From: Candidatus Hermodarchaeota archaeon
GTDB lineage: Archaea; Asgardarchaeota; Thorarchaeia; Thorarchaeales; Thorarchaeaceae
DNA: 13,631 bases
Reading direction: 5' to 3'
Assembly: GCA_048885865.1 (NCBI GenBank)
Contig: JBHLLF010000062.1
Coordinates: forward strand, 1-13,631
Under the pieces are notes generated by a model. It was not told the origin of the DNA. It saw nothing but the letters and a program-made list of their open reading frames with translations, and ran no database searches. A program made the position numbers and the translations under genes. This document shows positions 1-13,631 of the stretch, piece after piece. Position 1 is the first letter of the stretch. Every line of letters starts with the position of its first letter.

Positions 1-1336
1 CAATTGAATTCAGATTCTCTTTCGTCCAAAGAAAATGGCGATTATGAGGCAACCCTGCTTTATTGTGGATTATTATTCTCTTCTCGATATGGTTACATAC
101 TGAACATTCGTTCCCAAACAATTCTCTTCTCATTTCTTCAACACTGAGATTTTCGGTTTCGAAATTCATACGATTCCTATCAAGTGTTATTTTTCCATGG
201 AAATCGTGATTTTTCATTTCGAGATTTTCTAGAGTTGACTTTCTAAGCGATTCAATCTCACTCCATTCCATGCCTAGTTCATCAATAGTCCAATGTGACC
301 CTCTATGACAAGCAGTGCATAACCGCTGCCATTCTTCTGGATCAATCTGCTGCAAATCTCTCAAACTCCACAGATTGATGCCTTCGTGTTCTGAACCATC
401 CTTCCTATGTATGAACGATTTTCTCGATTCACTATCAATACCACAAAACCTGCACTCTGAACCGAAAAGCTCCTCCCTAAGTTCTTTGATTTTCTCATAA
501 GTTGCATGTCTATGTTCTCTTCTGGCTTCTATTCTTTCTTCATCAGCTTCAAATGTCCTCATTGTTATTCCGCGGCGAGGTCCTCGTGATTCCCAATCCA
601 TTTCTTCGAAAACTCGAAGGACAGTATCTTTTGAAATCCCCATCTCTTTGGCTACTTCTTCTTGAGTAAGTTTCTCTTCAAAATAGAGATGAAAGATGTC
701 ATCTTCTATACCATCCATCTTTCTGGAACGAACCTCCCATTCATTTCGCTTAAACACATCTTGAACCCATTTAGTAGACATTCTAAGTTTTTCAGCCACT
801 TCGGACTGGGTAAGCTCTTCATCAAAATACAGCTGATGGGCCTCTTCTTCTAACTCTAGATTTCTCTTGGGGCGTGTTTCCCATCCTTGTTCTTCGAAGA
901 TTCTTCTAACTGCTTTCACTGACTTTAATCCAAGCTTGTCAGCTACTTCTTTTTGTGACAATCCTTCATCGAAGTATAGTCTATGGACGTCGTCTTCGAT
1001 ATCAGTAACCTTTCCAGCCCTTGCTTCCCATCCCTCTTCGCGAAAAACCCGTTGAATTGGCTTTGTTGATTTGTGGCCAAGCTTATCTGCGATTTCAGAG
1101 TGAGTCAATCCCTCTTCGAAATACATTCGAAGAATGTCTTCTCTTGTTTCATCGGCAGCGTCTTTTTCGAGTTCTGACTGAGCTTCTGATGATTCGAGCT
1201 TCTCCAATGCGCGCTTTATTCTCCGTTCCATTTCAAATTCTCTGGCAATCTCCTTGGCGATTTCTTCAGCTTTAATCTCATCAACTTCTTCTGTTTCCTT
1301 AATCCTCTCAATACGAGAGAACCTTCTTCTTTCCAT
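1..1336 (-). CDS. Partial (3' end outside window) protein of >=445 aa: charged N-terminal helix, 4 tandem HTH repeats and >=2 tandem HNH-like Zn-finger nuclease-type modules
   Basis: My translation: open from ATG at 1336 (SD-like GGGTG just upstream) to the window edge with no stop, so it is missing from the ORF track. Starts MERRRFSRIERIKETEE. Repeats such as EDILRMYFEEGLTHSEIADKLG...VFREEGWEAR occur 4 times. Then LFGSECRFCG...FIHRKDG...LCTACHRGSH and LFGNECSVCN...IIHNKAG. Confidence 0.85.
   Translation of the reverse strand, partial: MERRRFSRIERIKETEEVDEIKAEEIAKEIAREFEMERRIKRALEKLESSEAQSELEKDAADETREDILRMYFEEGLTHSEIADKLGHKSTKPIQRVFREEGWEARAGKVTDIEDDVHRLYFDEGLSQKEVADKLGLKSVKAVRRIFEEQGWETRPKRNLELEEEAHQLYFDEELTQSEVAEKLRMSTKWVQDVFKRNEWEVRSRKMDGIEDDIFHLYFEEKLTQEEVAKEMGISKDTVLRVFEEMDWESRGPRRGITMRTFEADEERIEARREHRHATYEKIKELREELFGSECRFCGIDSESRKSFIHRKDGSEHEGINLWSLRDLQQIDPEEWQRLCTACHRGSHWTIDELGMEWSEIESLRKSTLENLEMKNHDFHGKITLDRNRMNFETENLSVEEMRRELFGNECSVCNHIEKRIIIHNKAGLPHNRHFLWTKENLNSI
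584..1141 (-). repeat. Four tandem 48-49 aa HTH-type protein repeats
   Basis: Consensus (D/E)(D/E)xxxLYF(D/E)ExL(T/S)xxE(V/I)AxxLG...(V/I)xx(V/I)FxxxxWExR in four consecutive units. Confidence 0.85.
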
Positions 1337-1500: not shown

Positions 1501-2178
1501 TCAATGTCGAGTGGCTATCAGATGTATCTCCTGACGGGTCTTGTCAAGGGTGAGATTCAGAATTTCGACAAAACCCAGTCTAGAGACTTGCCTACGCAAC
1601 TCCTCTATTGTTTCAGGAGTGCTTCTTGCTTTGAAGGCTGCCACAAGTCGACTGCCTTTCTTCATGAGAGAAGAGAATCTCTGGATCAAGCTTATTGTGC
1701 CATCTGGGTCAGTAGTGACATCCACAAGTAGCAGATCCAGTGTGGCATCGTTGCATACAACAGATGGGTCCATTGTGAAGGCATCGTCAATTAGAATCGA
1801 AATGGTTGGATGGGTTTCCACAAGTTCTTCAAGAGTTTCTGTAAACTCATCAGAAACTTCTACACCAATAGCACGAATATTCCTCTCACCTAAAAGAGTC
1901 AAAAACCCCCCAGCGGAGCTACCAATGTCGAGGGCCAGACTGATATCCCGTAGCAGGTTTCCTTCTAAATAATCGTCAATCTCCTTGAGTTTAGCATATC
2001 CAATTGGATTATCTTGTATTACAGTTGATACAACGACCGAGTCCGTTTCTGTGATATTTTTCGACGGCTTTGAAAGAACATTATTCACTTTAACATGACC
2101 CGCTCGTATGGCGCGTTTCGCAGCCTGTCGCGATGAGAAGTAACCTTGTTCCACGAGCCAAATATCAAGTCTTGGCAT
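1501..2178 (-). CDS. TlyA-like RNA methyltransferase (S4 domain + FtsJ-type SAM domain)
   Basis: N-terminal RLDIWLVEQGYFSSRQAAKRAIRAGHVKVN (S4); LDIGSSAGGF SAM-binding motif. Confidence 0.8.
   Translation of the reverse strand: MPRLDIWLVEQGYFSSRQAAKRAIRAGHVKVNNVLSKPSKNITETDSVVVSTVIQDNPIGYAKLKEIDDYLEGNLLRDISLALDIGSSAGGFLTLLGERNIRAIGVEVSDEFTETLEELVETHPTISILIDDAFTMDPSVVCNDATLDLLLVDVTTDPDGTISLIQRFSSLMKKGSRLVAAFKARSTPETIEELRRQVSRLGFVEILNLTLDKTRQEIHLIATRH
2015..2032. repeat. 9-bp-phased site array (inside TlyA-like CDS)
   Basis: TGTATTACA GTTGATACA. Confidence 0.55.
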
Positions 2179-2938
2179 GATACTTCTCTCCCACCTCGTC
2201 CGGAATAAAGAGATGCATTGGCACGCCCCTCAGTTTTGGACCAATGGCCGCCAATATCCCAGATGCCCGTGTACTTCTTTTACATCTGAGCGAATACTCG
2301 AAGCTACCAAGTCTTTCCACTCGATAGATGTCTTCCAAGTGCTTGGATTTTTCCAGTGCATTATCCAACATCTTTCTAGTACAACCTAGAATGAGCAGCC
2401 GTTCATGATCGTCTTCCACCCACCGATTGATTTGATTGAGAAACGACTCAGCAAGCTCGGCCTCGATTTTGGGACCTCGATTGTCGATGTTTGTTATGCT
2501 GACATTGACGGGTAGGTTGTCTACAAAGATGACTGTCTTGGCAATTGCACGTAGTGGAATTTTCTCCATTGAAAGCTGTTCTCGAAGACGAAAAAGGGGA
2601 ATCAGAGTATCGACTTGAAGTGGTGTGGTTATACCAATATCGACGTATAGACCATATCCAACCTTTCCAACATCTACAAAATGCCCGGAATATGCGGAAC
2701 CAACTGAGATAGAATCGGTAGTAGTCACTGTACCATATTCTTTAGAGAGCACATTGCCAACAAATTCCTCGTCCTCTCCCTCGATCTCGATGATTATACG
2801 GTTTCTATTGTCAGTCTTTAGCCTTGCAAGACTCACTTCAAGTTCTCTTGTCATCTCAGAGATTTCCGACTCTACGGCTTGGAGGATTCTTCCTCTAAAT
2901 GGGCCATAGGCACGGGCTTTGAGAACCAGATGCTTCAC
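2165..2938 (-). CDS. DUF2110 family protein
   Basis: FVDVGKVGYGLYVDIG and C-terminal ASGILAAIGPKL motifs; position downstream of tfe as usual in archaea; GTG start. Confidence 0.8.
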   Translation of the reverse strand: MKHLVLKARAYGPFRGRILQAVESEISEMTRELEVSLARLKTDNRNRIIIEIEGEDEEFVGNVLSKEYGTVTTTDSISVGSAYSGHFVDVGKVGYGLYVDIGITTPLQVDTLIPLFRLREQLSMEKIPLRAIAKTVIFVDNLPVNVSITNIDNRGPKIEAELAESFLNQINRWVEDDHERLLILGCTRKMLDNALEKSKHLEDIYRVERLGSFEYSLRCKRSTRASGILAAIGPKLRGVPMHLFIPDEVGEKYHAKT

Positions 2939-3005
2939 CAGTCCATCTCCAGATGCCTTCTAATCCTTGCTTGCTAAGTAGGTTTCTGAATCAGGTCAGG
3001 TTTCT

Positions 3006-3533
3006 CTATGTTGTAGATGTAGCCTCTAGATCCGCCTTTAGCTCCTCTACACGTTTCTTGAGAAAGTTGATGGCCCTCTTGTTGTCAACATACTCTAACT
3101 GCTCGTTACACGAAGGACAACGAAATGATAGATTCATTGCCTCTTCGAATGGAACTGGAGATGAATCACGGTTAACACAAGCATAAAGATCGTTGTTGGT
3201 TTCGTGTTGCAGTCTCTGTTCGAGTAGGTTCAACACCATACGTTTCTTCCGATTGACAAGGGCTTGGGCCTTTTTCGGGTCGATTTTCCAGTAGTAAAGG
3301 AACCAGCCAGTGTTAGTGTCACGAATCCTACGGTATGAAGCGAGGTGATTATCGTGTAGTTTGTAGAGAATTCTGCGTACAATGTTCAATTTCAAATCGG
3401 TCTTAGTAGCAATTTCCTCATCTGTGGTTTCTTCCGCATTGACAAGGACAGACGCAACGTCCACACCTTCCTTGCCTGATATCTCTTCAACTACAAGGCG
3501 GAAAAGGTCATGATTTATGTTCGCATGTGCCAT
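3006..3533 (-). CDS. tfe: Transcription factor E (TFIIE-alpha homolog)
   Basis: TDEEIA...VRRILYKL...GWFLYYW winged helix; Zn ribbon ending FRCPSCNEQL. Confidence 0.96.
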   Translation of the reverse strand: MAHANINHDLFRLVVEEISGKEGVDVASVLVNAEETTDEEIATKTDLKLNIVRRILYKLHDNHLASYRRIRDTNTGWFLYYWKIDPKKAQALVNRKKRMVLNLLEQRLQHETNNDLYACVNRDSSPVPFEEAMNLSFRCPSCNEQLEYVDNKRAINFLKKRVEELKADLEATSTT

Positions 3534-3679
3534 TTGAAGTAATCACCCTAGCGAATGGTAGCTGGCTAGTCGACTGTGTCTTAATGTAACCAAAAGCCCT
3601 GCGTTTGGAAACTAGAACTTGCACTTACTATTATAGTATAGTATAATAGACTATTTATTCACTTCGTTTGGGTCCTATC

Positions 3680-4249
3680 TCATTCAGACTTCTGGGACTT
3701 CTTTCGCTTGACAACCACTCTGTCTCCTAATGTAGGACCACTACCAGAGCTTCCTCGAGATGTCTTGATGGGAACGGCATCGATTGGTTCAAGCAACGAG
3801 ATTTCCAATTCCCTCTCAAGACCTCTGATTGTCCTACGGGTGGGCTTGATTCGACCAGCTTCTATTGCTTGCAGTGTCGATATGCGTTCACCCACTTTTT
3901 GCGCAAGCTCCTCTTGGTTCAGTTTCTTTTTCTGCCTTGCAGTTTGTATTCTTCTAGCGAAGTCTTCCACCAACATCATGTCATCAAGGAGAGTCCCAGC
4001 CGAGCTTGGTCTAGGTTTCTTCTTGGCAGGTGATGGTGACCTGATCAGAGGAGCTGACGCTGGTTTCCTTGACTCGCCAACCCAAGACGGTTTCATCTTT
4101 GGCGCGGATGAGCCCCGATGACCAGAAACAGACTCAGAACCACCAAATCTGCTAGCACATTGAGGGCAGACGTTCATTCGAGCGCCCTCAATCTCGATAT
4201 TCCGTCCACGACCCTTCATGTTTCGGCCACAAAGTTCGCAGCTGGGCAC
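3680..4249 (-). CDS. mbf1: Archaeal multiprotein bridging factor 1 (Zn ribbon + HTH)
   Basis: CELCG...IEGARMNVCPQCASRFG ribbon, ARQKKKLNQEELAQ HTH, C-terminal TLGD; GTG start. Confidence 0.93.
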   Translation of the reverse strand: MPSCELCGRNMKGRGRNIEIEGARMNVCPQCASRFGGSESVSGHRGSSAPKMKPSWVGESRKPASAPLIRSPSPAKKKPRPSSAGTLLDDMMLVEDFARRIQTARQKKKLNQEELAQKVGERISTLQAIEAGRIKPTRRTIRGLERELEISLLEPIDAVPIKTSRGSSGSGPTLGDRVVVKRKKSQKSE

Positions 4250-4391
4250 GTTGATTATCCCTCTTCAGGTCCTTCAAAATCGGATATGTAGATAAAAGTA
4301 ACTGACTGGACGTGGGTGTAAATTGGTGCATATAGACCCTCAAAATAAACCTTTTAACATCATCAGAGAATTGAGCTGCGAGGTGCGTTGA

Positions 4392-5591
4392 TTGCCAGGA
4401 ACTACTGATGCCAAAAAAGACGGCATCGATGATTCATCCCTAACAGAAAATTACACTCGACATCTTGAACGTCGTCTTCGTGCTCTTGAAACAGAGAAGC
4501 AGATACTTCAGGCTGAGCGTTCAAGGTTGGAGAAGGAAACGCAGACTCTCCGAACCGAGCTGGAAAAGCTTAGGCAGTCACCTCTAATCACTGCGACAGT
4601 GATTGAGATGCTGGAAGATGGTAGAGCTGTTGTGAAAAGCTCTACAGGACCAAACTTCGTAGTACATGTTTCTTCATCAATAGTCAAAGAGAAGATTCAG
4701 CCCGGTATGAGAGTGGCCCTCAACCAACGGTCTTTTGCAGTCACTCAAGAGCTGCCTCCATCAAGAGATCCAATGATTAGAGCGATGGAGATTGAAGAAG
4801 CTCCTGAGGTATCATATACTGACATTGGAGGCCTCAGAGATCAGCTTCTTGAGATCAAGGAAACTGTAGAGCTGCCGCTCGTGAAACCGCATCTGTTCGA
4901 ACAGGTAGGTATTGAACCACCAAGAGGAGTTCTCCTCACTGGACCACCAGGGACAGGAAAGACGCTTTGCGCACGTGCTGTCGCAAACGAAACCAATGCA
5001 ACATTCATTCGTGTGATTGGGTCCGAACTAGTACAGAAGTTCATTGGAGAGGGAGCCCGTCTTGTACGGGAGATATTCATGCTTGCCAAAGAGAAAGCAC
5101 CAGCCATCGTTTTTGTAGATGAACTGGATGCTGTGGGTTCACATAGACTTGACATAGCCACTTCAGGGGACAGAGAGGTACAGCGAACTCTGATGCAGCT
5201 TCTTAGTGAACTGGATGGTTTTGAGAATCGAGGACAGGTGGCGGTTCTTGGTGCGACTAATCGCCCGGATATTCTTGATCCTGCATTGCTAAGACCTGGT
5301 CGCTTTGACCGAATAATCGAGTTTCCATTCCCTGACGATGACAGTCGAGAGGAGATTTTCAAGATTCACACTCGTGGTATGAATTTGGACTCAAAACTTG
5401 ACTTTGCCAAACTGGTTTCCGCCACAGCTGGCAAAACAGGTGCGGATATCAAAGCAATGTGCACTGAAGCGGGTATGTTTGCTATTCGTGAAAGTAGAGT
5501 CTGTGTACTCCAGGATGACTTTAGCAAGGCAATAGCCAAGGTCCAAAGCCGCGGTAGAGGCGACGGGGCTCCTGGCAGCATGTATTGCTAA
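4392..5591 (+). CDS. pan: Proteasome-activating nucleotidase
   Basis: Coiled coil + OB (VKSSTGP), Walker A GPPGTGKT, pore loop KFIG, DREVQRT, RPGRFDR, C-terminal HbYX motif MYC; TTG start after GAGGTG. Confidence 0.97.
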   Translation: MPGTTDAKKDGIDDSSLTENYTRHLERRLRALETEKQILQAERSRLEKETQTLRTELEKLRQSPLITATVIEMLEDGRAVVKSSTGPNFVVHVSSSIVKEKIQPGMRVALNQRSFAVTQELPPSRDPMIRAMEIEEAPEVSYTDIGGLRDQLLEIKETVELPLVKPHLFEQVGIEPPRGVLLTGPPGTGKTLCARAVANETNATFIRVIGSELVQKFIGEGARLVREIFMLAKEKAPAIVFVDELDAVGSHRLDIATSGDREVQRTLMQLLSELDGFENRGQVAVLGATNRPDILDPALLRPGRFDRIIEFPFPDDDSREEIFKIHTRGMNLDSKLDFAKLVSATAGKTGADIKAMCTEAGMFAIRESRVCVLQDDFSKAIAKVQSRGRGDGAPGSMYC

Positions 5592-5710
5592 TATGTGGTC
5601 TAACCTGCAAGATATTGTAATGCGAGAAAGACAAAGTGAGAAACATAAATCGTAGGATAGGTTATCCTAGCACCAATGATTTATGGGTTTGGCCATGATA
5701 GGGAAAGCCA

Positions 5711-6532
5711 ATGCAATATCTGGAATATCTCAGAACTCGACTGCATGGGATTATTCCTGAGGAAACTAGACTCCCATCAGGATTTCATCTAATCGGACAT
5801 GTGGCCATTCTTAGCTTAGATCAGGATTCTGTTTATTTCGCGGGTGAAATTGGAAAGGCGACGCTAGAGTATGATGCAAGGATCAAATCAGTTGCAATGA
5901 AGACTGGTCCTACCAAAGGACGTGTTCGCAAACCGGATTATACCTTGATTGCAGGAGACTCAAATACTCTCACAACACATGTTGAGGGAGGGGTGAGTTT
6001 CAGAGTCGATCCACTACGATTTACATTCTCTGGAGGAAACCTTGCAGAGAGAATTAGAATGGGCAGAGTTATTGAATCAGAGGAAAAGGTCCTAGACATG
6101 TTTGCTTGCGTTGGACAATTCTCACTGCATGCAGCGAAGACTGGAAAGGCCGAAGTAACCTCCATTGAGATTAATCCCGAAGCATATGAGCTGCTGATTG
6201 AGAATGTCGGTCTGAACGATCTGACTGATAGAGTGAGTGCGATTCTAGGTGATTGTCGCGATGTGCATCCGACCAACTGTATTAATCGTGTGATAATGGG
6301 ATATCTTCATGACACTCAGGAGTACTTGATTCATGCACTGGAAGCTTTAGTGCCAGATGGGGGAGTAGTGCACATGCATATTGCACTGTCTGAAAACGAC
6401 CTTTCTAGAACTACTGAAGTGGTAAAAGGTATCTGCTCAGGTCAGGGATTTACATCTCAAGTTTCAATTCGCCAAGTAAAGATGTATGCCCCAAACATCG
6501 GTCACTATGTATTTGATATCGTAGTGAAATAA
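5711..6532 (+). CDS. taw2: tRNA wyosine-pathway aminocarboxypropyltransferase Taw2/TYW2 (Met-10+/Trm5 superfamily)
   Basis: FSGGNLAERIRM, VLDMFACVGQFS, EINP, RVIMGY, VKMYAP motifs. Confidence 0.8.
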   Translation: MQYLEYLRTRLHGIIPEETRLPSGFHLIGHVAILSLDQDSVYFAGEIGKATLEYDARIKSVAMKTGPTKGRVRKPDYTLIAGDSNTLTTHVEGGVSFRVDPLRFTFSGGNLAERIRMGRVIESEEKVLDMFACVGQFSLHAAKTGKAEVTSIEINPEAYELLIENVGLNDLTDRVSAILGDCRDVHPTNCINRVIMGYLHDTQEYLIHALEALVPDGGVVHMHIALSENDLSRTTEVVKGICSGQGFTSQVSIRQVKMYAPNIGHYVFDIVVK

Positions 6533-6610
6533 GAAAACACTGTTCAAGCGTAAGCATTTTATCTCCTCCTTCGAATGTCAGATTGAATACCTAGACTTGA
6601 GGATTGAACA

Positions 6611-7012
6611 ATGTCACGCAGACGTGGTCAACGTGGGATGTCACCTAGAGCAATTGCTCGAATGATGAAACAGATGGGTATCGAACAGCAAGATGTGCCT
6701 GGTGTCAAGGAAGTGATATTCCGTTTTGCAGACAAAGAATGGGTAGTTAATGATCCTCAGGTGTTGCTGGTGAAACAAGCTGGTAGTGAATCGTTCCAAG
6801 TATCAGGCACAAAGCTGGAACGTGGTTTGACTGCAGCTGCAGAAGGTGGCGAGGAGGCTGCTCAAGAACCAGTGAAGGAGATTGAGATTCCAATGGAAGA
6901 CGCTGCACTTGTTGCAGCACAGACTGGAGTTGATATCGAAATAGCAAAAGAAGCTCTGCAAGAAACTCAGGGAGATCTTGCAGCTGCAATTTTGAAGTTA
7001 CGGCATACATAG
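6611..7012 (+). CDS. nac: Nascent polypeptide-associated complex protein
   Basis: RMMKQMGI NAC domain start; C-terminal UBA-like LVAAQTGV...GDLAAAILKL. Confidence 0.95.
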   Translation: MSRRRGQRGMSPRAIARMMKQMGIEQQDVPGVKEVIFRFADKEWVVNDPQVLLVKQAGSESFQVSGTKLERGLTAAAEGGEEAAQEPVKEIEIPMEDAALVAAQTGVDIEIAKEALQETQGDLAAAILKLRHT

Positions 7013-7031
7013 CTGTAATACAGCTAATACA
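7010..7031. repeat. 9-bp-phased site array between convergent nac and atpD
   Basis: TGTAATACA GCTAATACA (7014-7031); the first unit is the centre of a 17-bp palindrome TAGCTGTA-A-TACAGCTA (7010-7026). Confidence 0.75.
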
Positions 7032-7035
7032 TATC

Positions 7036-7668
7036 TTAGCTCTCAGACTCCATCTGTTCTTTGAGGAACTTGAGCCTGAAGAAGTCCTCACGTTCTCTCT
7101 CTTCAAGAGCTTGCTTTACATACCGTGCCGTTGCATCCAGTCTAGGAATCACAATAGTTTCAAGAGCAGAAACACGTCTCTTGGTTCGCTCAATTTCAAT
7201 CGCCAGTCGTTTGACGGTCGAATCAACCTCGGCAAGACGAACTACAGCTTTCATGGCCTCGTTAAACCTAGTTGACATGACATCGAGCTGGACGCTTGAA
7301 TCTGGAAGAGAGTATGGGAGCTCGGGAATGTGTTGTTCTACGGACAGTACTGGAACTACTACACCCATCATAGATCTCGTAGAGATTCTCAGGTCAGCTT
7401 GGACTTTGCTTGCATTGGCAAACTCAACGACCTCAGCTGGACCCATGACCATCTTTGTCTTTGTTAGTGCGGAGAATGCTGAAGCAAGAGCCGCTTCCAC
7501 CTCCTCCCGAGTCTTCTTAATTTCTTCAATTGAGTTGAAGAACTCCATGATTAATGAGTCGCGTTTCTCTTTGAGAAGATTGTGACCTCGTTCTGCGAGT
7601 CTCATCCTATTTTTCAGTCGCAGAAGCTCCATGCGAGTCGTCTTTGTTCCAGGTAGAATTTTGCTCAT
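7036..7668 (-). CDS. atpD: A/V-type ATP synthase subunit D
   Basis: TRMELLRLK...RGHNLLKEKRDSL; EIERTKRRVSALE; LEEREREDFFRLK. Confidence 0.96.
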   Translation of the reverse strand: MSKILPGTKTTRMELLRLKNRMRLAERGHNLLKEKRDSLIMEFFNSIEEIKKTREEVEAALASAFSALTKTKMVMGPAEVVEFANASKVQADLRISTRSMMGVVVPVLSVEQHIPELPYSLPDSSVQLDVMSTRFNEAMKAVVRLAEVDSTVKRLAIEIERTKRRVSALETIVIPRLDATARYVKQALEEREREDFFRLKFLKEQMESES

Positions 7669-7744
7669 TGATATTCACTTCGAAGGATGAGATTGGTGCA
7701 GTCAGTCGTGCTATATTGATGTCCTAAAACTCTTGTGATGCACA

Positions 7745-8023
7745 TCATGCAAATGTAATGACTAGGGCACTGACAAGAATGGCAAACGCACAGATGATCA
7801 ACCAGTCTCGGAGATACTTCTTAACCAATCGGGGTCTGTCGTTTATCTGTCCAGTTGTGATAAGTGTCGTGAGGGAGATAAACAAGAATGCGAAGGGGAG
7901 GGCAACTGCTGGGCTTGTTAGCTCCACATCTGCGATTAGGATTATTGCTGCCAAACCTCCGAAGATTAGGAAACTGAGTATCATCAGAGAGTTCAGGACG
8001 TGCCGTATTCGATCGACATCCAT
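7745..8023 (-). CDS. Small membrane protein, ~3 predicted TM helices (92 aa)
   Basis: Three hydrophobic stretches; start moved to ATG 8023 (MDVDRIRH), which follows GGAG. Confidence 0.75.
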   Translation of the reverse strand: MDVDRIRHVLNSLMILSFLIFGGLAAIILIADVELTSPAVALPFAFLFISLTTLITTGQINDRPRLVKKYLRDWLIICAFAILVSALVITFA

Positions 8024-8161
8024 TCGAGGATTCTCCTGTGTGATTGACGGGTCATGCCCGACCGTGCATTCATGCCTATTCATTCTGTTCAAAAAGGTTG
8101 CGTCTTGGAAAAGCCAGACTGAAAGTCTACCACACTACTTATTAGTGGGCATCTGGGTGAT

Positions 8162-8188
8162 TGTATTACAAGAAGTACATGTGATACC
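8162..8188. repeat. Triple 9-bp-phased site array upstream of the ATPase gene (candidate operator/centromere)
   Basis: TGTATTACA AGAAGTACA TGTGATACC, ending 14 nt before the ATG at 8203. Confidence 0.75.
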
Positions 8189-8202
8189 ATGAGGTTCACA
8201 TC

Positions 8203-9177
8203 ATGACAATAGCAATTCACGAAAGTGCATTGATTCGTCACTTCAACACGCGCAAGGAAGTCTTGCGAGCTTGGGAGGAAAGAATTGGGTGTAGGTTTTC
8301 TCCATTTAGGGGATACAAGATGCCTGACTCCAGACTATATGTGGAGCACCCTGATTTTCTCGATAGCATTGTTGATTTGATAATCACGAATGAGAGACAC
8401 ATCTTTCTCAGAGGGCCGGTGGGTTCAGGAAAGAGTACTCTCATGTTGCTGGCTCTCAGAGACCTGCCTACCCTAGCAGATCGTCGAGGAAACAAATTCG
8501 TCACCGGATATGTTGGGATGACTGGCCTCTATGAGAAACAGATGTCAGCGGCAATAGCAGACTCGTTGAGAGTGAAATACCGTAGATCTTGGGAATCAAG
8601 TCAGATTGTAGAATCAATTGCCCAAGAATGTGTGAGAAGATATACTGAAGAGAAAAGCCGCACGGCCCTATTTGTGGAAGATGTTGCTGATAACCAAGAA
8701 GCAGCATTCCACAAGCTCAGATACCTTGCAGACCTGCCCACTCAGGAGATGAAAGAGGACAATCCAGAGGTATTAGATGAGCCAATTATCACTCTGATAA
8801 TGTCAGGGACTGCGGTTTACTGGAACGCAATGCTAAGCTTCTTGCCGCAAATTGCTGATAGAACTGAGCCACTTGATGTTCCTGCTTTAGACGATGAGAA
8901 AGCCAAGGAGTTCATTGGCAGAAGAATTGCATATGCAAAGGGACAGATTGACACCTTTGATGCGAACAGCTATGATATCTACCCATTCGTTGATGATGCT
9001 GTGATGGTCATCAATAGAGCAGCCAAGGGCAATCCACGTGACATTCGTATGCTGTCAAGAGGATGTCAACAGGTGGCTGCAGAGAACTTTAGGCAGAATG
9101 GCAATCCGGAAGTTAACAGAGAGATTGCAGAACTTGTATCGGATGCCTATGCAACAATACTGAGAGAGGTGCGTTAG
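8203..9177 (+). CDS. AAA+ ATPase (ExeA/AAA_22-like), stand-alone
   Basis: Walker A GPVGSGKS, variant Walker B ALFVED, LIMSG strand, QIADR (Arg-finger position), GNPRDI (sensor-2); GAGGT SD. Confidence 0.85.
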   Translation: MTIAIHESALIRHFNTRKEVLRAWEERIGCRFSPFRGYKMPDSRLYVEHPDFLDSIVDLIITNERHIFLRGPVGSGKSTLMLLALRDLPTLADRRGNKFVTGYVGMTGLYEKQMSAAIADSLRVKYRRSWESSQIVESIAQECVRRYTEEKSRTALFVEDVADNQEAAFHKLRYLADLPTQEMKEDNPEVLDEPIITLIMSGTAVYWNAMLSFLPQIADRTEPLDVPALDDEKAKEFIGRRIAYAKGQIDTFDANSYDIYPFVDDAVMVINRAAKGNPRDIRMLSRGCQQVAAENFRQNGNPEVNREIAELVSDAYATILREVR

Positions 9178-9179
9178 GT

Positions 9180-9467
9180 TTGAGTGTTCTGAAAAAGTAT
9201 AGGGATGCTGGTGAAGAAGAAAGGGAATCGGTTGCAGAGTCACGAACGAGAGTTGCAGTAGAGAAACCGAAAGCAATGATTGCTGTACCCAATAAGGAAA
9301 GGAAAAGTCCAATCGTGTCATTCTCGTTCACGACCGAGCTTCGATCTTGTCTTCAGGATGTGCGAAATGAAAGGGCAATCAACCTGAGTATGTGGGTTGA
9401 AAGAAAACTTTGGAAAGCACTGACCGAAGAGTTCCCAGACATAGCCGACAAGCATCATGAGGGCTGA
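9180..9467 (+). CDS. Small predicted ribbon-helix-helix DNA-binding protein with charged N-terminal tail
   Basis: TTG start 2 nt after the ATPase stop, with GAGGTG SD at 9166-9171. C-terminal IVSFSF (strand), TELRSCLQDVRNER (helix), AINLS turn, MWVERKLWKALTEE (helix). Fold inferred from pattern. Confidence 0.7.
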   Translation: MSVLKKYRDAGEEERESVAESRTRVAVEKPKAMIAVPNKERKSPIVSFSFTTELRSCLQDVRNERAINLSMWVERKLWKALTEEFPDIADKHHEG

Positions 9468-9499
9468 CTGCTCTCAGCATGAAGAAACAGCATTATTGT

Positions 9500-9521
9500 T
9501 ATAATACGTGTAATACAATCA
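9500..9521. repeat. 9-bp-phased site array downstream of the ATPase-RHH operon
   Basis: TATAATACG TGTAATACA (9500-9517); 9509-9521 is the exact reverse complement of 8158-8170. Confidence 0.75.
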
Positions 9522-9523
9522 TA

Positions 9524-9539
9524 TCTAGTCGTAACTAGA
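9524..9539. terminator. Short hairpin between convergent genes
   Basis: TCTAGT-CGTA-ACTAGA. Confidence 0.3.
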
Positions 9540-9544
9540 CCTGC

Positions 9545-10942
9545 TCAATCCCTTTTGGATGCGTGCATCTCTGAGTATTCCGTAACTCTTGCAATACACA
9601 ATGCAGCTATGGCCGGGTCGTCATAACAAGGAATACGATTCATCTCAAGTAGATCCTTTCCTGGTTTTCCAACATCACCTGCAAGCCATACTCCAACAAC
9701 GGGTTTCTTGACGTCTGCAGTTCGTATCCCTTCCAGGGTGCCTGCAGCATGTTCTGTTTGAGTCATTCCGGCAAAGGTCGGAACTCCGCATATCACCATT
9801 AGCATGTCTATGTTAGGATCTTTGAGCATCAGTTCTGTGGTAATTCGATATTCCTTTCTCCCTCCACTTGCTACAACATCTACAGGATTCTCTACTGACG
9901 CCATGGGAGATAGAACCTCCCTTAATTCCTGGCTTGTTTCTCGTTCTAGTGAAGGGATGTTCAGCTCGAAACTAGCTGATGCGTCTGTCGCAAGAACGCC
10001 TGCTCCTCCTGTATTACTGATAATACCAATATTACGTCCTTCTGGTAGAGGCTGGTAGTCAAACAATTTGGCAACCTCAAGAAAGGTATCAAGAGAAGGT
10101 GCTGTTACACAGCCGGCTTGTCGAATCATACCATCAAATACAGCTGTTGAACCCGCTAGGGATCCTGTGTGAGACTGGGTTGCCCGACTACCAGGCTCGC
10201 TTCTCCCACCCTTAAGCACTATGACTGGTTTCTGTCTAGCGGCTCTGCTGAGGGACTCAAAGAAAGCACGGCCGTCATCTACCCCCTCTACATAGACCAT
10301 AATCACAGTGGTCTTTGAATCGTTAGTGAAGTAATCCAGAATCTCTACAAAGCTGACATCAGCTGAGTTACCAATGCTGGCAAACTTACTAAGACCTATA
10401 CGCTTGACACGTGTGTTGTAGATGAGCATACCACCAAGTGCTCCACTCTGGGAGATTAGTGAGATATTCCCTCTCTCAGGCATCATAGTGAAAGTGCCAT
10501 TGAACAACCTGCTGTTGGAAACACCTACACAATTAGGTCCAATTATTCTGACTCCAGCCTCTTGGGCGGCTTTGACAAGCTCGTCCTCAAGTTGCGAGCC
10601 TTGTGGACCAGTTTCACTGAAACCGCCCGATATCACCACTGCAGCTCTCGCACCTGCTTCTCGGACCTGACTCATCAAGTCCGGACAATATTCTGCTGCA
10701 ACAGCAACTATGACCAAGTCGACAGGCTCAGGAATATTGGCAAGACTTGAATATGCCTTGACTCCAAGGACTTGTTCTCTGCTGCGAGTCACTGGATAGA
10801 TGTCGATCTCGGACGTGAGGAGATTCATGAGAATGGAATTGCCTAGCTTCCGATAGTCAGATGATGCACCAACAAGGGCAACCCGTGAAGGATTGAAAAA
10901 GGAATCAATCTCATCGAATCTCTTTGGGCCCAGACTGGTCAT
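9545..10942 (-). CDS. acdA: Acetate/acyl-CoA ligase (ADP-forming), alpha subunit
   Basis: FFNPSRVALVGAS, ISGGFSETG, IIGPNCVG, SQSGALG, catalytic SHTGSLAG, NPVD; start placed at ATG 10942 (MTSLGPK). Confidence 0.92.
   Translation of the reverse strand: MTSLGPKRFDEIDSFFNPSRVALVGASSDYRKLGNSILMNLLTSEIDIYPVTRSREQVLGVKAYSSLANIPEPVDLVIVAVAAEYCPDLMSQVREAGARAAVVISGGFSETGPQGSQLEDELVKAAQEAGVRIIGPNCVGVSNSRLFNGTFTMMPERGNISLISQSGALGGMLIYNTRVKRIGLSKFASIGNSADVSFVEILDYFTNDSKTTVIMVYVEGVDDGRAFFESLSRAARQKPVIVLKGGRSEPGSRATQSHTGSLAGSTAVFDGMIRQAGCVTAPSLDTFLEVAKLFDYQPLPEGRNIGIISNTGGAGVLATDASASFELNIPSLERETSQELREVLSPMASVENPVDVVASGGRKEYRITTELMLKDPNIDMLMVICGVPTFAGMTQTEHAAGTLEGIRTADVKKPVVGVWLAGDVGKPGKDLLEMNRIPCYDDPAIAALCIARVTEYSEMHASKRD
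10010..10036. repeat. Triple 9-bp-phased site array inside acdA
   Basis: TGTATTACT GATAATACC AATATTACG. Confidence 0.7.
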
Positions 10943-10997
10943 GATTCTGAACCAATTATCACTTGATTTATGTCTACCGAGCGAAACGAATGAGTAT

Positions 10998-11015
10998 TGT
11001 ATTACAAGTAATATC
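10998..11015. repeat. 9-bp-phased site array upstream of acdA
   Basis: TGTATTACA AGTAATATC. Confidence 0.75.
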
Positions 11016-12243
11016 ATTCTGGGGTGCTTCTCTTTTGGAAGCGTCTAAGATGCCTACGGTTCTTGCATTCAGACTCCAGAGCATCTTTGATCACCGTCAT
11101 GGTTTCGGGAGACTTCGTCAAGATGTTGTCAAGAGCAGTCAATGAAGCATCGATGACTCGCTTATCCATACTCCTACAAATCAGGTCGACAATGGCATGA
11201 GCGGATGATTCATGGTAGAGATTTCCAAGAGCTGTTATCGATGGCGTGATGATTCTTTGGTCATCAGTCCTCAATAGCTTCTCAAGGTGGGTAATCGAAT
11301 CCAAATGGCGGACAGCAACATGACCATTGATGCATTGTAGAAGCTGTCGATAGGCCTCGCTTGATTTAGAGCTCATGTATTGAGTGACTGCATTATCTAG
11401 CATTGCATTCAGAGTTGGCAAGGAATGAATACTGCCCTTGGAGATAAGACCTTCAATGTCTTGATGCATGATGTGTTCATGAAGTTCTTTGTACATTTGA
11501 TTTGATGGTCCGATGGAGCCCATGCCAGATGCTTCTACTGTTTCAGAAACTGTTATCCTTTGTTTGACTTCTGGTGATACTTGTATTACTGATAATACCA
11601 TATCAAACTGATCCATTGATGTTTTGTTTCCCTTTATCCCAAGATCGGACAGAGCGAGGCGACCATATTCAGAATACCATAATTGTGTAGCATCCACAAG
11701 ATCGCCAGTTCGCTTTAGATTGAGATTAGCTATCTGTTCAACCCGGATTGCCTCAAGCTGTTTGTTGAACTCCTCGAACTTGGTATCTGGAGGGAGATTG
11801 AAGTATAGTGTGTCACCGGATTCTATTTGTTTCATAGCAATCTCTTGAACATGGAAGGTGAAAGACTGTGATGCTTCAGCTAGAGATTTACTCGATTTCA
11901 GCGTTCGAAGAAGACTCACAGTTTCATTCTGTACAGGTTCAAATCCATTGCATGACAACAGGTCGAAAATCATTTCACGGTACTTCAGGGGCTCAATAGG
12001 CTTCTGTTGTTTTCCAAAGCCAGCTGGGGTAGAATACTCCATATTGCCTACATCAATGAGATATTCCAGGGCTGTGTTCCATCCCTTGTCTTGTTCTACA
12101 GTTGCAACGATATCAAGCAAATCCCGGGATCTTCTCTCGCCTATTGCGTTCACGATGTCCTTCAGCGAATTTTCCATCTCAGCTTTTTCTGCACGCTCAC
12201 GACTAGCCTTCAGGAACCACTTGCTATCTCTTTCTTCGGACAC
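11014..12243 (-). CDS. Hypothetical protein (409 aa) with C-terminal HEAT-like repeats
   Basis: Long ORF; probable GTG start at 12243 after GGAG; LEKLLRTDDQRIITPSITALGNL and IVDLICRSMDKRVIDASLTALDNI resemble HEAT/PBS-lyase repeats. Confidence 0.75.
   Translation of the reverse strand: MSEERDSKWFLKASRERAEKAEMENSLKDIVNAIGERRSRDLLDIVATVEQDKGWNTALEYLIDVGNMEYSTPAGFGKQQKPIEPLKYREMIFDLLSCNGFEPVQNETVSLLRTLKSSKSLAEASQSFTFHVQEIAMKQIESGDTLYFNLPPDTKFEEFNKQLEAIRVEQIANLNLKRTGDLVDATQLWYSEYGRLALSDLGIKGNKTSMDQFDMVLSVIQVSPEVKQRITVSETVEASGMGSIGPSNQMYKELHEHIMHQDIEGLISKGSIHSLPTLNAMLDNAVTQYMSSKSSEAYRQLLQCINGHVAVRHLDSITHLEKLLRTDDQRIITPSITALGNLYHESSAHAIVDLICRSMDKRVIDASLTALDNILTKSPETMTVIKDALESECKNRRHLRRFQKRSTPE
11573..11599. 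repeat. Triple 9-bp-phased site array inside the HEAT-like CDS
   Basis: GGTGATACT TGTATTACT GATAATACC. Confidence 0.7.
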
Positions 12244-12311
12244 ACTTGGCCTTACTCCTATAGCATGACTAGAATCATTATCCTGGGTGATAAGACTTTG
12301 TCGAGCTATTC

Positions 12312-12338
12312 TGTATTGTTTGTATCTTTTGTAATACA
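12312..12338. repeat. 9-bp-phased site array, intergenic
   Basis: TGTATTGTT TGTATCTTT TGTAATACA. Confidence 0.7.
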
Positions 12339-12436
12339 ATAAATATTCTACATATGAAAGGCACATTTAGTGAAGCAAGACAGAGGAAATGTCTGCGTTC
12401 TAAGATTAGAACTATGTATACTTGTGACCCTGTAAA

Positions 12437-12633
12437 GTATGAGCATGTTGTGTCAATGATGGCAACTAGTGCTACGGGATTTCCATCCTTTGGCACCCTC
12501 AAACGCCCGTCGTTGGCATCTCTATCTCCTCAAGTAAAAGTACCTCCAAGAAGATCCAATGCCGGTAAGAGTTCGGTGCTGGGAAACCTGAGCTACTTGC
12601 CGCAGATACGACATGCTCGTGCCGTTTCTTTTC
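12437..12633 (+). ncRNA. Candidate rod-like structured non-coding RNA (~190 nt), family unknown
   Basis: 18-bp closing stem 12437-12454/12605-12622 (all Watson-Crick or G-U on + strand), four further nested helices, then T-rich GTTTCTTTTC. Confidence 0.6.
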
Positions 12634-13181
12634 TATACTCCTGGTTCAGCTTTGCGTTTAGACAGCTCGGACTTTAGAACTGTTGATGAAGTGAGTTCTT
12701 CCAACGCCGATAGAATTGTACGTTCTGCTGTACTATAGCTCTCGATTTCTTCGTCGGACAGATCTGCCTTCCCTGCTAGTATATCACGAATCTTCCGATA
12801 ATCGCCAATCCTCGAGGCTATCTCCTCAAATGGCCTGAAGAGTGTGAATTCGAACAGACCAAGATACGCTAGAAGTAGCATTGTGTATAGACAACGCGTC
12901 ACGTTTGTTCGAGCCTGGCCTAGGGTTCTGTTAAACGAACCACGCGAAACTCCACTTCCCTTCCTTTTCAATCTGAGAGCTGCCTTCTCATCATATGGGA
13001 TATGACTCCCATGTTCGTCTTCTACAACGAGGTCTATCAGAAGAGTTTCTAGTTGGACCTTTGTCAGTGTAGATTGATCGAGCAGTGCTTTCAAGATGGG
13101 CTCTTGCAAGACCCTCTGTGCTCCATCCGCAAGTTGCTTCACAGTACCACGCCGTTTGATTTTGGACCTTTTTCGACTCAT
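12633..13181 (-). CDS. Hypothetical protein, possible HTH-type DNA-binding
   Basis: ATG after GAGG; basic N-terminus; STLTKVQLETL...YDEKAALR...GVSRGSFNRTLGQARTNV resembles a helix-turn-helix. Confidence 0.75.
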   Translation of the reverse strand: MSRKRSKIKRRGTVKQLADGAQRVLQEPILKALLDQSTLTKVQLETLLIDLVVEDEHGSHIPYDEKAALRLKRKGSGVSRGSFNRTLGQARTNVTRCLYTMLLLAYLGLFEFTLFRPFEEIASRIGDYRKIRDILAGKADLSDEEIESYSTAERTILSALEELTSSTVLKSELSKRKAEPGV

Positions 13182-13325
13182 ATTTGACAGGCCTCATAAG
13201 GGTGGAAATTGCAAAAAGAGGCTTCATAATGCTTTTTCCAGACCTCAGTCTTGTACATCTGTACGGATACAATTTTGTATACAATTGAACACATAAACCT
13301 TGCCGGCGAGGATTCGTAATATGAG

Positions 13326-13334
13326 TGTAATACA
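13326..13334. repeat. Single perfect 9-mer site, intergenic
   Basis: TGTAATACA, with a degenerate CGTAATATG at 13315-13323. Confidence 0.65.
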
Positions 13335-13352: not shown

Positions 13353-13631
13353 CTACCTAAATCGAAGTTTCCATTCTGACTCGGGAGGGGTCAACACAAA
13401 CCCCAGGATCAGATTGCCGCGTATCTCATCGAATTTGAAAACGCCAAAAACATAGTTCGTGTTGTTAGTTGACCACTCGACTCTGCCTCGTGTGAGATAA
13501 TGCTGGAATATGGCGCGGCATTGTTTCCGCACCTGTGCGAATAGGTTCCGATACCTTTTCCTCTGAGAAGGCCGAATGCCCCATCTCTCAAGGATGAACC
13601 TATTGGCGAGACTATTGCTCGATATGAGTGT
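13353..13631 (-). CDS. Partial hypothetical protein (C-terminal 92 aa; start outside window)
   Basis: My translation, open from the edge to TAG at 13355-13353: TLISSNSLANRFILERWGIRPSQRKRYRNLF...FGVFKFDEIRGNLILGFVLTPPESEWKLRFR. Confidence 0.7.
   Translation of the reverse strand, partial: TLISSNSLANRFILERWGIRPSQRKRYRNLFAQVRKQCRAIFQHYLTRGRVEWSTNNTNYVFGVFKFDEIRGNLILGFVLTPPESEWKLRFR

Follow-up and report, generated by a model that had tools for sequence, protein, structure and literature searches.

A genome-unique field of 9-bp-phased GTAWTAC boxes beside a predicted replication origin in Asgard archaea, with a candidate binding protein and a proposed Orc1/Cdc6-like ATPase partner

Why does a single contig of an Asgard archaeal genome carry seven perfect copies of the palindrome TGTAWTACA, with phased neighbours, and some of them between the stop codons of convergent genes? 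The window analysed here is the entire contig C62 (13,631 bp) of a 117-contig, 3.58-Mb genome bin (G000) assigned to a Candidatus Hermodarchaeota archaeon. Its end and the start of contig C12 share 77 identical bp, which indicates that the two contigs are adjacent, and position x of C12 is therefore equivalent to window position 13554 + x. The palindrome was found to belong to a field of short tandem arrays which begins in the window, continues into C12 and ends beside a predicted replication origin. Within the field lies a two-gene operon for an Orc1/Cdc6-like AAA+ ATPase and a small protein of 95 amino acids (p95), the latter being the candidate binder of the boxes.

The sites themselves are real. 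A reading of the window made from its letters alone (the sequence-only reading) had reported perfect copies of TGTAWTACA at 2015, 7014, 8162, 9509, 10998, 12330 and 13326, and all seven are present. It had also put the chance expectation well below one per window; dinucleotide shuffles give an expectation of 0.06, and none of 200 shuffles reaches seven copies. The whole genome has 13 perfect copies, seven of them on C62 and two near the start of C12 (at 834 and 1896), with more arrays following on C12 up to 5904. Nine of the 13 perfect sites fall in the 0.55% of the genome made up by C62 and the head of C12. The repeated palindrome is real as described, while the conserved core is the shorter GTAWTAC. 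Of 172 such cores in the genome (0.048 per kb), 14 are in the 12.4-kb field (1.1 per kb), which also contains the genome's three 5-kb windows of highest density. No genome-wide over-representation of the 9-mer was found, its totals being equal to those of a reversed-pattern control, and the signal is therefore purely positional.

The boxes are also phased, in agreement with the neighbours at 9-bp spacing that had been noticed in the window. At a spacing of 9 bp the genome contains 12 doublets (with at most three mismatches in total), whereas for any of the other spacings between 6 and 21 the count is 0–6. Of these 12 doublets nine are at the locus, as are 15 of 33 at a looser threshold. For 74% of 69 perfect sites collected from nine genomes, a neighbour with at most three mismatches lies at exactly 9 bp on one side or the other, compared with 0–9% at other offsets; a neighbour at 18 bp is seen for 38%. 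An array typically has 2–4 units with a phase of exactly 9 bp. The 14 arrays extend over ~12.4 kb at a mean spacing of 957 bp (coefficient of variation 0.29), a regularity which was never matched by uniformly placed points in 20,000 trials (P below 5e-5). Inspection by eye revealed no consistent orientation of strong and weak units relative to the predicted origin.

A genome-wide density scan had been proposed as a check, with a single sharp peak at this locus as the supporting outcome. The scan gave that outcome, and the concentration at one locus is repeated in relatives. The perfect 9-mer is at the locus in seven of eight cases in G004 (within 13 kb of a 2.58-Mb single contig), 15 of 22 in G024 (within 16.5 kb), nine of 15 in G010 and eight of 14 in G017. 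Doublets of the form GTAWTAC-NN-GTAWTAC (at most one mismatch) are at the locus in eight of nine cases in G004, and all 24 of those in G024 are in one 40-kb stretch.

GTAWTAC cores are located at window positions 7015, 8163, 9510, 10011, 10999, 11583, 12331 and 13327, and at positions 835, 1897, 3274, 4134, 5292 and 5904 of C12. The settings of the arrays are varied. Two are in convergent stop-stop gaps (NAC/AtpD and p95/AcdA), one is in a divergent promoter region, and others are upstream of the TATA-like elements of a HEAT-repeat gene and of AcdA. There are intragenic arrays at no fewer than six coding positions, namely in AcdA, the HEAT-repeat gene, HypF (twice), IorB and IorA. The two convergent gaps which had been singled out beforehand (7013–7035 and 9468–9544) each hold an array, and six of the seven perfect copies are intergenic, as had been stated, once the starts of AcdA and the HEAT-repeat gene are set at their conserved ATGs. 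The range first given, 2015–13334, stands with respect to the arrays at 7.0–13.3 kb; its left end is an outlier, and about a third of the field, which runs into C12, had been missed. The arrays of the window and the features that frame them are as follows.

2015..2032: perfect unit with a weak neighbour, inside a gene for a TlyA-like methyltransferase
5616..5624: weak single box, one unit with two mismatches, in the PAN/TYW2 gap; possibly the outer edge of the field
7014..7031: two-unit array filling the 23 bp from the NAC stop codon to the convergent AtpD stop codon
7036-7668: gene for V-type ATPase subunit D (AtpD)
8162..8188: three-unit, 27-bp array in the promoter of the AAA-p95 operon, overlapping the predicted transcription start
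9500..9517: two units in the gap where p95 and AcdA converge, between their stop codons
9545-10942, minus strand: AcdA, alpha subunit of ADP-forming acetyl-CoA synthetase
10010..10027: array of two units within AcdA, at the codons for G-I-I-S-N-T
10965-10973, minus strand: TATA-like element of AcdA
10998..11015: two units ~25 bp upstream of the TATA-like element of AcdA, in the stretch from the HEAT stop codon to the AcdA promoter
11573..11599: array of three units within the HEAT/Arm-repeat gene
12289-12296, minus strand: TATA-like element of the HEAT gene
12312..12347: three-to-four-unit array, ~15-20 bp upstream of the HEAT gene TATA-like element
12633..13181, minus strand: p182, conserved protein of 182 amino acids, family not recognised
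13265..13282, minus strand: a separate conserved element (no GTAWTAC array) upstream of p182, whose half-sites GTATAC and GTATCC are 11 bp apart
13326..13334: perfect unit with the stop codon of p92 on one side and the promoter region of p182 on the other
13353..13631, minus strand: C-terminal part of p92, conserved protein of ~138 amino acids whose gene continues on C12

The same gaps carry arrays in at least nine genera. The two-unit array of the NAC/AtpD gap is retained in seven of 11 relatives that have the gap (two being near-identical to the window) and is degenerate or absent in the other four, while the PAN/TYW2 gap, with its weak single box in the window, holds better two-unit arrays in relatives L021, L024, L026 and L034. 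Two to three units are found upstream of the HEAT gene in every relative examined, and perfect copies occur at the place equivalent to the HEAT-gene site in five other genera (L024, L026, L028, L030 and L031). One-mismatch copies of the 9-mer had been listed at 9590, 10010 and 11582; these are present, with a further one at 1336. Two of them, however, are not single sites, those at 10010 (AcdA) and 11582 (HEAT-repeat gene) being conserved intragenic arrays which share an identical 19-mer in different reading frames.

Selection is also seen within the genes. The array in AcdA overlies six codons, and five of their six synonymous positions are invariant in 14 of 14 genomes (at least nine genera), whereas flanking Gly, Ala, Val and Leu codons vary freely. 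Synonymous sites are frozen likewise at two places in HypF and at one each in IorB and IorA, and the HypF residues at the place of the array differ in the sister family (G025, family f2), which is without a field. The sites are real, phased, unique to one locus of the genome, and under selection at the DNA level.

Some elements in and around the window stand apart from the field. The copy at 2015, with 5 kb separating it from the nearest array and with counterparts only in the near-identical genomes G010 and G015, is probably an outlier. Two good GTAWTAC doublets elsewhere in G000 may be distal sites or may have arisen by chance: one is in a divergent intergenic region (C1:126688-126714), and the other (C111:1814-1831), directly after the phosphoglycerate kinase stop codon, is near-identical to the array at 10998. 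The element upstream of p182 (13265–13282) is present in all relatives, including those of the sister family. It differs from the GTAWTAC boxes and probably serves p182 itself as an operator or promoter signal.

If the boxes are read by a protein, the operon in the middle of the field provides the most likely candidate. Its parts are listed below.

8138-8145, plus strand: TATA-like element of the AAA-p95 operon, a YTTATWWR block ~25 bp upstream of the array, conserved in all relatives
8203..9177, plus strand: 324-aa AAA+ ATPase, Orc1/Cdc6-like fold (modelled), without a winged helix; Pfam AAA_22/AAA_16, below cut-off
9180..9467, plus strand: p95, 95-aa protein, candidate box binder

The 27-bp triple at 8162–8188 is located between the TATA-like block and the Shine-Dalgarno sequence and ATG of the ATPase gene. 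From this position it would cover the predicted transcription start, which is where a repressor is expected to sit. It is the best-conserved array of the field, being kept nearly base for base across the family, and GTAWTAC boxes are also found upstream of the AAA gene in families f2, f7, f21 and f27.

The ATPase is encoded in single copy and is 77–98% identical within the family of the window (f1); databases list it only as hypothetical or "ExeA-like", and public records assign identical or near-identical sequences to Candidatus Thorarchaeota. Its AlphaFold2 model has a pLDDT (predicted local distance difference test) of 87, and the top Foldseek matches are archaeal Orc1/Cdc6 proteins (E-values of 1e-9 to 1e-8), followed by TnsC, MuB and eukaryotic ORC/Cdc6. 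The match covers the AAA+ and lid domains only, and the chain ends after the lid, which leaves no winged helix. Consistent with this, no Cdc6_C (PF09079) match was detected in the ATPase, so that of the AAA+, lid and winged-helix domains which define the Orc1/Cdc6 family the first two are found. As a separate observation, its Walker B region (residues ~156–163) has a hydrophobic stretch followed by Glu-Asp instead of the usual Asp-Glu.

The p95 gene has a TTG start 2 nt after the end of the ATPase gene and a Shine-Dalgarno sequence inside it, and is translationally coupled to it. In alignments p95 has an invariant N-terminal peptide, a variable, charged (disordered) linker, and a conserved C-terminal part with a strand and two helices. 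No match was found for p95 in Pfam or PDB sequence searches. The best Foldseek rows of its monomer model (pLDDT 64) are Arc repressor, CdbA and MazE, all of which are ribbon-helix-helix proteins and none of which is significant; the model suggests that a ribbon-helix-helix fold is likely.

The field is predicted to adjoin a replication origin. Two copies of an 18-bp palindromic repeat resembling an origin recognition box (ORB) are present at C12 5334 and 5566, flanking a stretch with the lowest GC content of the area (37%), in which a mini-ORB-like TTCCACTGGAA is also found. The field ends ~40 bp from the first of these repeats. More copies of the repeat are found at C12 5876 and 14661, with an ORB-like element with a G-string at 9596. 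In relatives the 18-bp repeat occupies the corresponding position, and in family f7 it lies beside Cdc6. This genome encodes two Orc1/Cdc6 proteins, at C12 28.7–29.9 kb and 68.8–70.1 kb.

Within this part of C12 there are two intergenic ORB-like regions (5334–5580 and 9290–9760), either or both of which are candidate origins, ~19–24 kb from the nearest Cdc6 gene and separated from each other by saccharopine-dehydrogenase-like genes. The genes at C12 5585–5884 (a 99-aa protein) and 8651–9049 (a winged-helix-like protein of ~130 amino acids) are homologues of two small genes that stand between Cdc6 and the ATPase in families f7, f19 and f21. It seems that an ancestral origin neighbourhood has been split by insertions in the family of the window.

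Across Asgard families, the distribution of the ATPase is patchy. It is present in f1 (54 of 59 genomes), f2, f3, f7, f19, f21 and f27, and was not found in f5 (0 of 26), f9 (0 of 54), f14 or f22. In f3, f7, f19 and f21 the order of genes is PolD small subunit, Cdc6, a winged-helix-like protein, a ~90-aa protein, the ATPase, a small ribbon-helix-helix-like protein, p182 and usually HypF, which places the pair 3–4 kb from Cdc6 and the PolD small subunit.

Phased boxes accompany the pair in more than one form. Family f27 has GTAWTAC boxes with a 9-bp phase, and 11 of 12 and 10 of 10 genome doublets (at most one mismatch) are at the locus. In f19 the box is GATATC with a 13-bp phase, with 32 copies in 20 kb compared with five expected, some of them in the Cdc6/PolD gaps; in a closed 3.6-Mb genome all six GATATC-N7-GATATC doublets are at the locus, inside 11.4 kb, and none is found with the reversed pattern used as a control. 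Family f7 shows enrichment of GTTAAC in the origin-side gaps and has GTAWTAC only upstream of the ATPase gene, with no GTAWTAC field. The gene pair and the sites travel together, and a field private to one locus with boxes specific to the lineage is the pattern expected of a protein and its site that co-evolve.

In family f13 the same slot holds something else. The genome G036 (one 2.8-Mb contig) has a canonical ParA (AAA_31, 182 bits) and a ParB (ParB_N and HTH_ParB) between Cdc6/PolD-small and a homologue of p182, in the position occupied in f3 by the ATPase and the small protein, and no GTAWTAC cores are found in its 20-kb locus. The protein p182 travels with the AAA and ribbon-helix-helix pair in other Asgard families and with ParAB in f13. 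ParB_N matches well above the cut-off were found in three genomes, G028, G036 and G039, all of which are without the ATPase.

We propose that the boxes are docking sites of p95 which together form a centromere-like or origin-organising complex, and put the probability of this reading at roughly one half (0.5). Each 9-bp GTAWTAC unit would take one dimer of a small DNA-binding protein, most likely p95, with adjacent dimers touching each other. The conserved N-terminal peptide and flexible linker of p95 would reach the Orc1/Cdc6-like ATPase encoded in the same operon, and the array at the operon's own promoter would provide autoregulation. The ~14 arrays up to the predicted origin could then build one large origin-side nucleoprotein complex, which may act on the newly replicated origin region as a centromere-like handle or an organiser. 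The binder, its contact with the ATPase and the role in segregation or organisation are what we infer from this arrangement. The sequence-only reading had suggested the cooperative loading of a dimeric protein, as at a distributed parS cluster. The palindromic units, the strict 9-bp phase and the conservation away from promoters speak for such docking sites, and so support the suggestion in part; the parallel is limited in that the partner ATPase is Orc1/Cdc6-like rather than ParA and no ParB was found, which makes a role in origin control an equal contender.

A wider proposal is advanced more tentatively, as something short of an even prospect: several Asgard lineages may have a new class of partition machine, in which an Orc1/Cdc6-like AAA+ ATPase and a tailed ribbon-helix-helix adaptor act on a multi-kb centromere field and are interchangeable with ParABS.

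Several points weigh against a centromere-like or organising complex built on p95. We know of no AAA+ ATPase of the Orc1/Cdc6-like clade which segregates DNA, and judging by its modelled fold the ATPase could equally act in the initiation of replication. The ribbon-helix-helix assignment of p95 is based on a model of moderate quality (pLDDT 64) and on Foldseek rows which are not significant, and the boxes could instead be bound by p182, p92 or the HEAT-repeat protein. The origin is predicted solely from ORB-like repeats and base composition, the nearest Cdc6 gene is ~24 kb further on, and in f1 the field is on one side of the predicted origin. The ~1-kb regularity of the arrays could partly reflect the availability of one gap per gene. 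As for the frozen HypF sites, the residues there also differ in an f1 genome that has a field (G019), and the relatives compared are related genomes and so are not independent samples. With regard to the exchange with ParAB, an f1 genome which has the pair (G018) gives ParB_N matches just above the cut-off at two places (26.5–29.5 bits; cut-off 26.3), and many Asgard families have neither the pair nor ParB, so that the complementary distribution is weak, suggestive evidence.

The main alternative, to which we give less weight than to the reading above, is that the field controls the origin. The boxes would recruit the ATPase, via the small adaptor, to the origin flank and thereby regulate initiation, for example through the titration or remodelling of factors for initiation or helicase loading, or through the local state of the chromatin, with a logic like that of the bacterial DnaA-box clusters datA and DARS. 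The closest folds of the ATPase are indeed those of replication initiators and loaders, the field abuts ORB-like repeats, the pair is close to Cdc6 and the PolD small subunit in four other families, and the boxes of f19 extend to the gaps of those two genes. An initiator-like role is harder to reconcile with an ATPase that lacks the winged helix in a genome with a separate, canonical pair of Orc1/Cdc6 genes, or with boxes that do not flank the AT-rich stretch but are scattered over 12 kb, some of them within genes. In f13, moreover, the slot is filled by ParA-ParB and not by a replication factor.

It is quite improbable that a different conserved gene product of the neighbourhood (p182, p92 or the HEAT-repeat protein) reads the boxes while p95 binds something else. 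The case for such a binder is built on p182, which accompanies the pair in every family examined and has a conserved block resembling a helix-turn-helix, and on the fold of p95, which is not proven. However, p182 also stands beside ParA-ParB in the G036 locus, which is devoid of GTAWTAC cores, and has a different conserved element of its own upstream. Head-to-tail palindromes with a period equal to the unit length are a signature of ribbon-helix-helix binders, and the strongest array is at the promoter of the p95 operon.

More doubtful still is a purely local regulon, in which the boxes would be operators of p95 or p182 for AAA-p95, AcdA, HEAT, p182, HypF and IorAB and would have no chromosome-level role. 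The array of the AAA-p95 promoter occupies a classical archaeal repressor position, those of HEAT and AcdA are just upstream of TATA-like elements, and IorAB and AcdA form a coherent amino-acid fermentation pair. Yet an operator position is seen for only one of ~14 arrays. Two arrays are conserved in stop-stop gaps, for which the sequence-only reading had already considered an operator implausible, and at least six are intragenic with frozen synonymous sites; the sites are not restricted to promoters. The genes AtpD, NAC, HypF and AcdA do not otherwise make up a coherent set, and in one other family, whose box and neighbouring genes are not the same, the 1-kb spacing and the restriction to a single locus are seen again.

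Chance, a compositional quirk or the remnant of a mobile element is practically negligible as an explanation: across the genome the 9-mer is no more frequent than its reversed control, but the shuffles never reached the observed number, the arrays are conserved position by position across genera, and the field covers housekeeping genes in conserved order with the usual GC content of the genome and no known RNA family or tRNA gene in the window.

Four specific identities were also considered and rejected. A general promoter or TATA element does not fit 13 copies in a genome in which the TATA-like blocks are separate, and a Pumilio-type RNA element (UGUA...) was dropped on account of its spacing, which does not match, and of the sites being palindromic, phased and in stop-stop gaps. 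Boundaries of mobile elements or cassettes, of the kind seen elsewhere in this genome, were discarded in view of the housekeeping genes and the family-wide conservation of gene order and array positions. The boxes are not the origin recognition boxes themselves, being dispersed over 12 kb including coding sequence, with an ATPase lacking Cdc6_C and with separate ORB-like repeats present.

As regards the wider contents of the window, open reading frames and Pfam matches give the following order of genes after the first one, which is listed below: TlyA-like methyltransferase, DUF2110 protein, TFE, MBF1-like protein, the proteasome-activating ATPase PAN, TYW2/Trm5, NAC, AtpD, a 115-aa membrane protein, the 324-aa AAA_22-type ATPase, p95, AcdA, the HEAT/Arm-repeat gene, p182 and the end of p92. 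The same order is found across 14 related genomes.

2-1336, minus strand: first gene of the window, a protein with sigma-70 region-4-like helix-turn-helix repeats

This first reading frame encodes at least 445 amino acids and is open at the contig end. It has four to five tandem sigma-70 region-4-like repeats (Pfam Sigma70_r4, 3e-24) followed by two Cys-rich HNH-like blocks, and such a multi-helix-turn-helix architecture is unusual for an archaeon. The AtpD gene is solitary, with no other ATP synthase gene near it, and its placement is kept in most of the family. Pfam gave nothing usable for p95, p182, p92 or the 115-aa membrane protein, for p182 the protein atlas returned unnamed archaeal clusters and nothing else, and no Rfam family or tRNA gene was detected in the window.

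Asgard archaea are the closest known relatives of eukaryotes, and to our knowledge the way in which their chromosomes are organised and separated has not been described. The locus offers a concrete, testable candidate, consisting of a defined DNA field, an adaptor and an ATPase. If origins are moved or anchored by it, it would represent a new class of segregation machine with an initiator-type ATPase at a centromere-like site; a new partition class across lineages would add a class of NTPase to the Walker, actin-like and tubulin-like systems and would link ORC-type ATPases to centromere function. If initiation is controlled instead, the locus would represent an undescribed layer of archaeal origin regulation. 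Either way, the boxes mark the origin region of uncultured genomes from their sequence and show that selection at the DNA level can shape codon choice, and even amino acids, in housekeeping genes. Full-text literature searches (with the 9-mer, with Asgard and origin or ORB, and with Asgard and segregation or SegB) returned no description of the system.

How, then, does the field compare with systems that are known? Type Ib partition cassettes include ParF-ParG-parH of TP228 and the delta-omega system of pSM19035 with its heptad arrays. The likeness is in the two-gene operon, where the ATPase gene precedes that of a small protein which is dimeric and has a flexible N-terminal tail (for p95 the dimer is proposed and the tail predicted), and in several arrays of short head-to-tail repeats, which serve as operator and centromere in the known systems and would do so here. 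Tandem short repeats upstream of the operon, a mark of type Ib, are represented in the window by the 27-bp array, which is conserved across genera. The ATPase, on the other hand, is of the Orc1/Cdc6-like AAA+ type and not a deviant-Walker ParA, p95 has no detectable sequence similarity to ParG or omega, and the system is chromosomal and vertically inherited, with arrays over ~12 kb at ~1-kb intervals which are written into genes.

Docking of one dimer per unit, with neighbouring dimers in contact, is the way in which tandem boxes are read by ribbon-helix-helix proteins such as MetJ, omega and ParG. In the met-box operators, tandem 8-bp palindromes are bound by MetJ with one dimer per unit and contacts between neighbours. 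The palindromic units described here likewise have a period equal to the unit length. Met boxes, however, mark the dispersed promoters of a regulon, with no single field and no partner ATPase, and a promoter-only distribution over related genes is not what the convergent gaps and coding positions of the present field show.

Archaeal ORB elements share with the present system an ATPase of the Orc1/Cdc6 fold, and the field abuts ORB-like repeats. The GTAWTAC boxes differ from them in not flanking an unwinding element and in being dispersed over many genes, and the ATPase is without the winged helix that reads ORBs.

The SegAB/segS system of the Sulfolobales is chromosomal, with a ribbon-helix-helix motif in SegB and a ParA-like partner ATPase, SegA; the targets of SegB are a centromeric site with repeats, immediately upstream of the segAB operon, and further sites on the chromosome (PMC12139799). 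The present locus is similarly archaeal and chromosomal, with an ATPase partner and repeats just upstream of the operon. The two differ in that segS-like motifs are scattered along the chromosome and not confined to one field. The p95 profile found no SegB chain among PDB sequences (E-values up to 10), and the ATPase is not ParA-like.

The bacterial parS clusters, finally, resemble the field in being palindromic, origin-proximal (as predicted here), restricted to one chromosomal region and often placed inside genes. The units are 9-bp tandem ones as opposed to single 16-bp palindromes, and the ATPase is of another class. ParB_N (PF02195) had no match in G000 or 16 same-genus genomes searched, nor in any reading frame of the window; in other f1 genomes it reaches up to 29.5 bits in G018 (cut-off 26.3) and remains below the cut-off in G022. 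The ParA/MinD-type matches of the genome are weak, and the best two are not beside a gene of the centromere-binding type, so that no deviant-Walker ParA partner is apparent. An origin-proximal palindromic cluster unique in the genome, one mark of ParABS, is nevertheless found, with the origin being a predicted one. The comparison with parS is strengthened by the field abutting this predicted origin and by the presence of ParA-ParB in the same slot in f13. The system thus belongs to none of the type Ib, SegAB, ParABS or ORB systems; its layout is like that of type Ib and SegAB, and its position is like that of a parS cluster.

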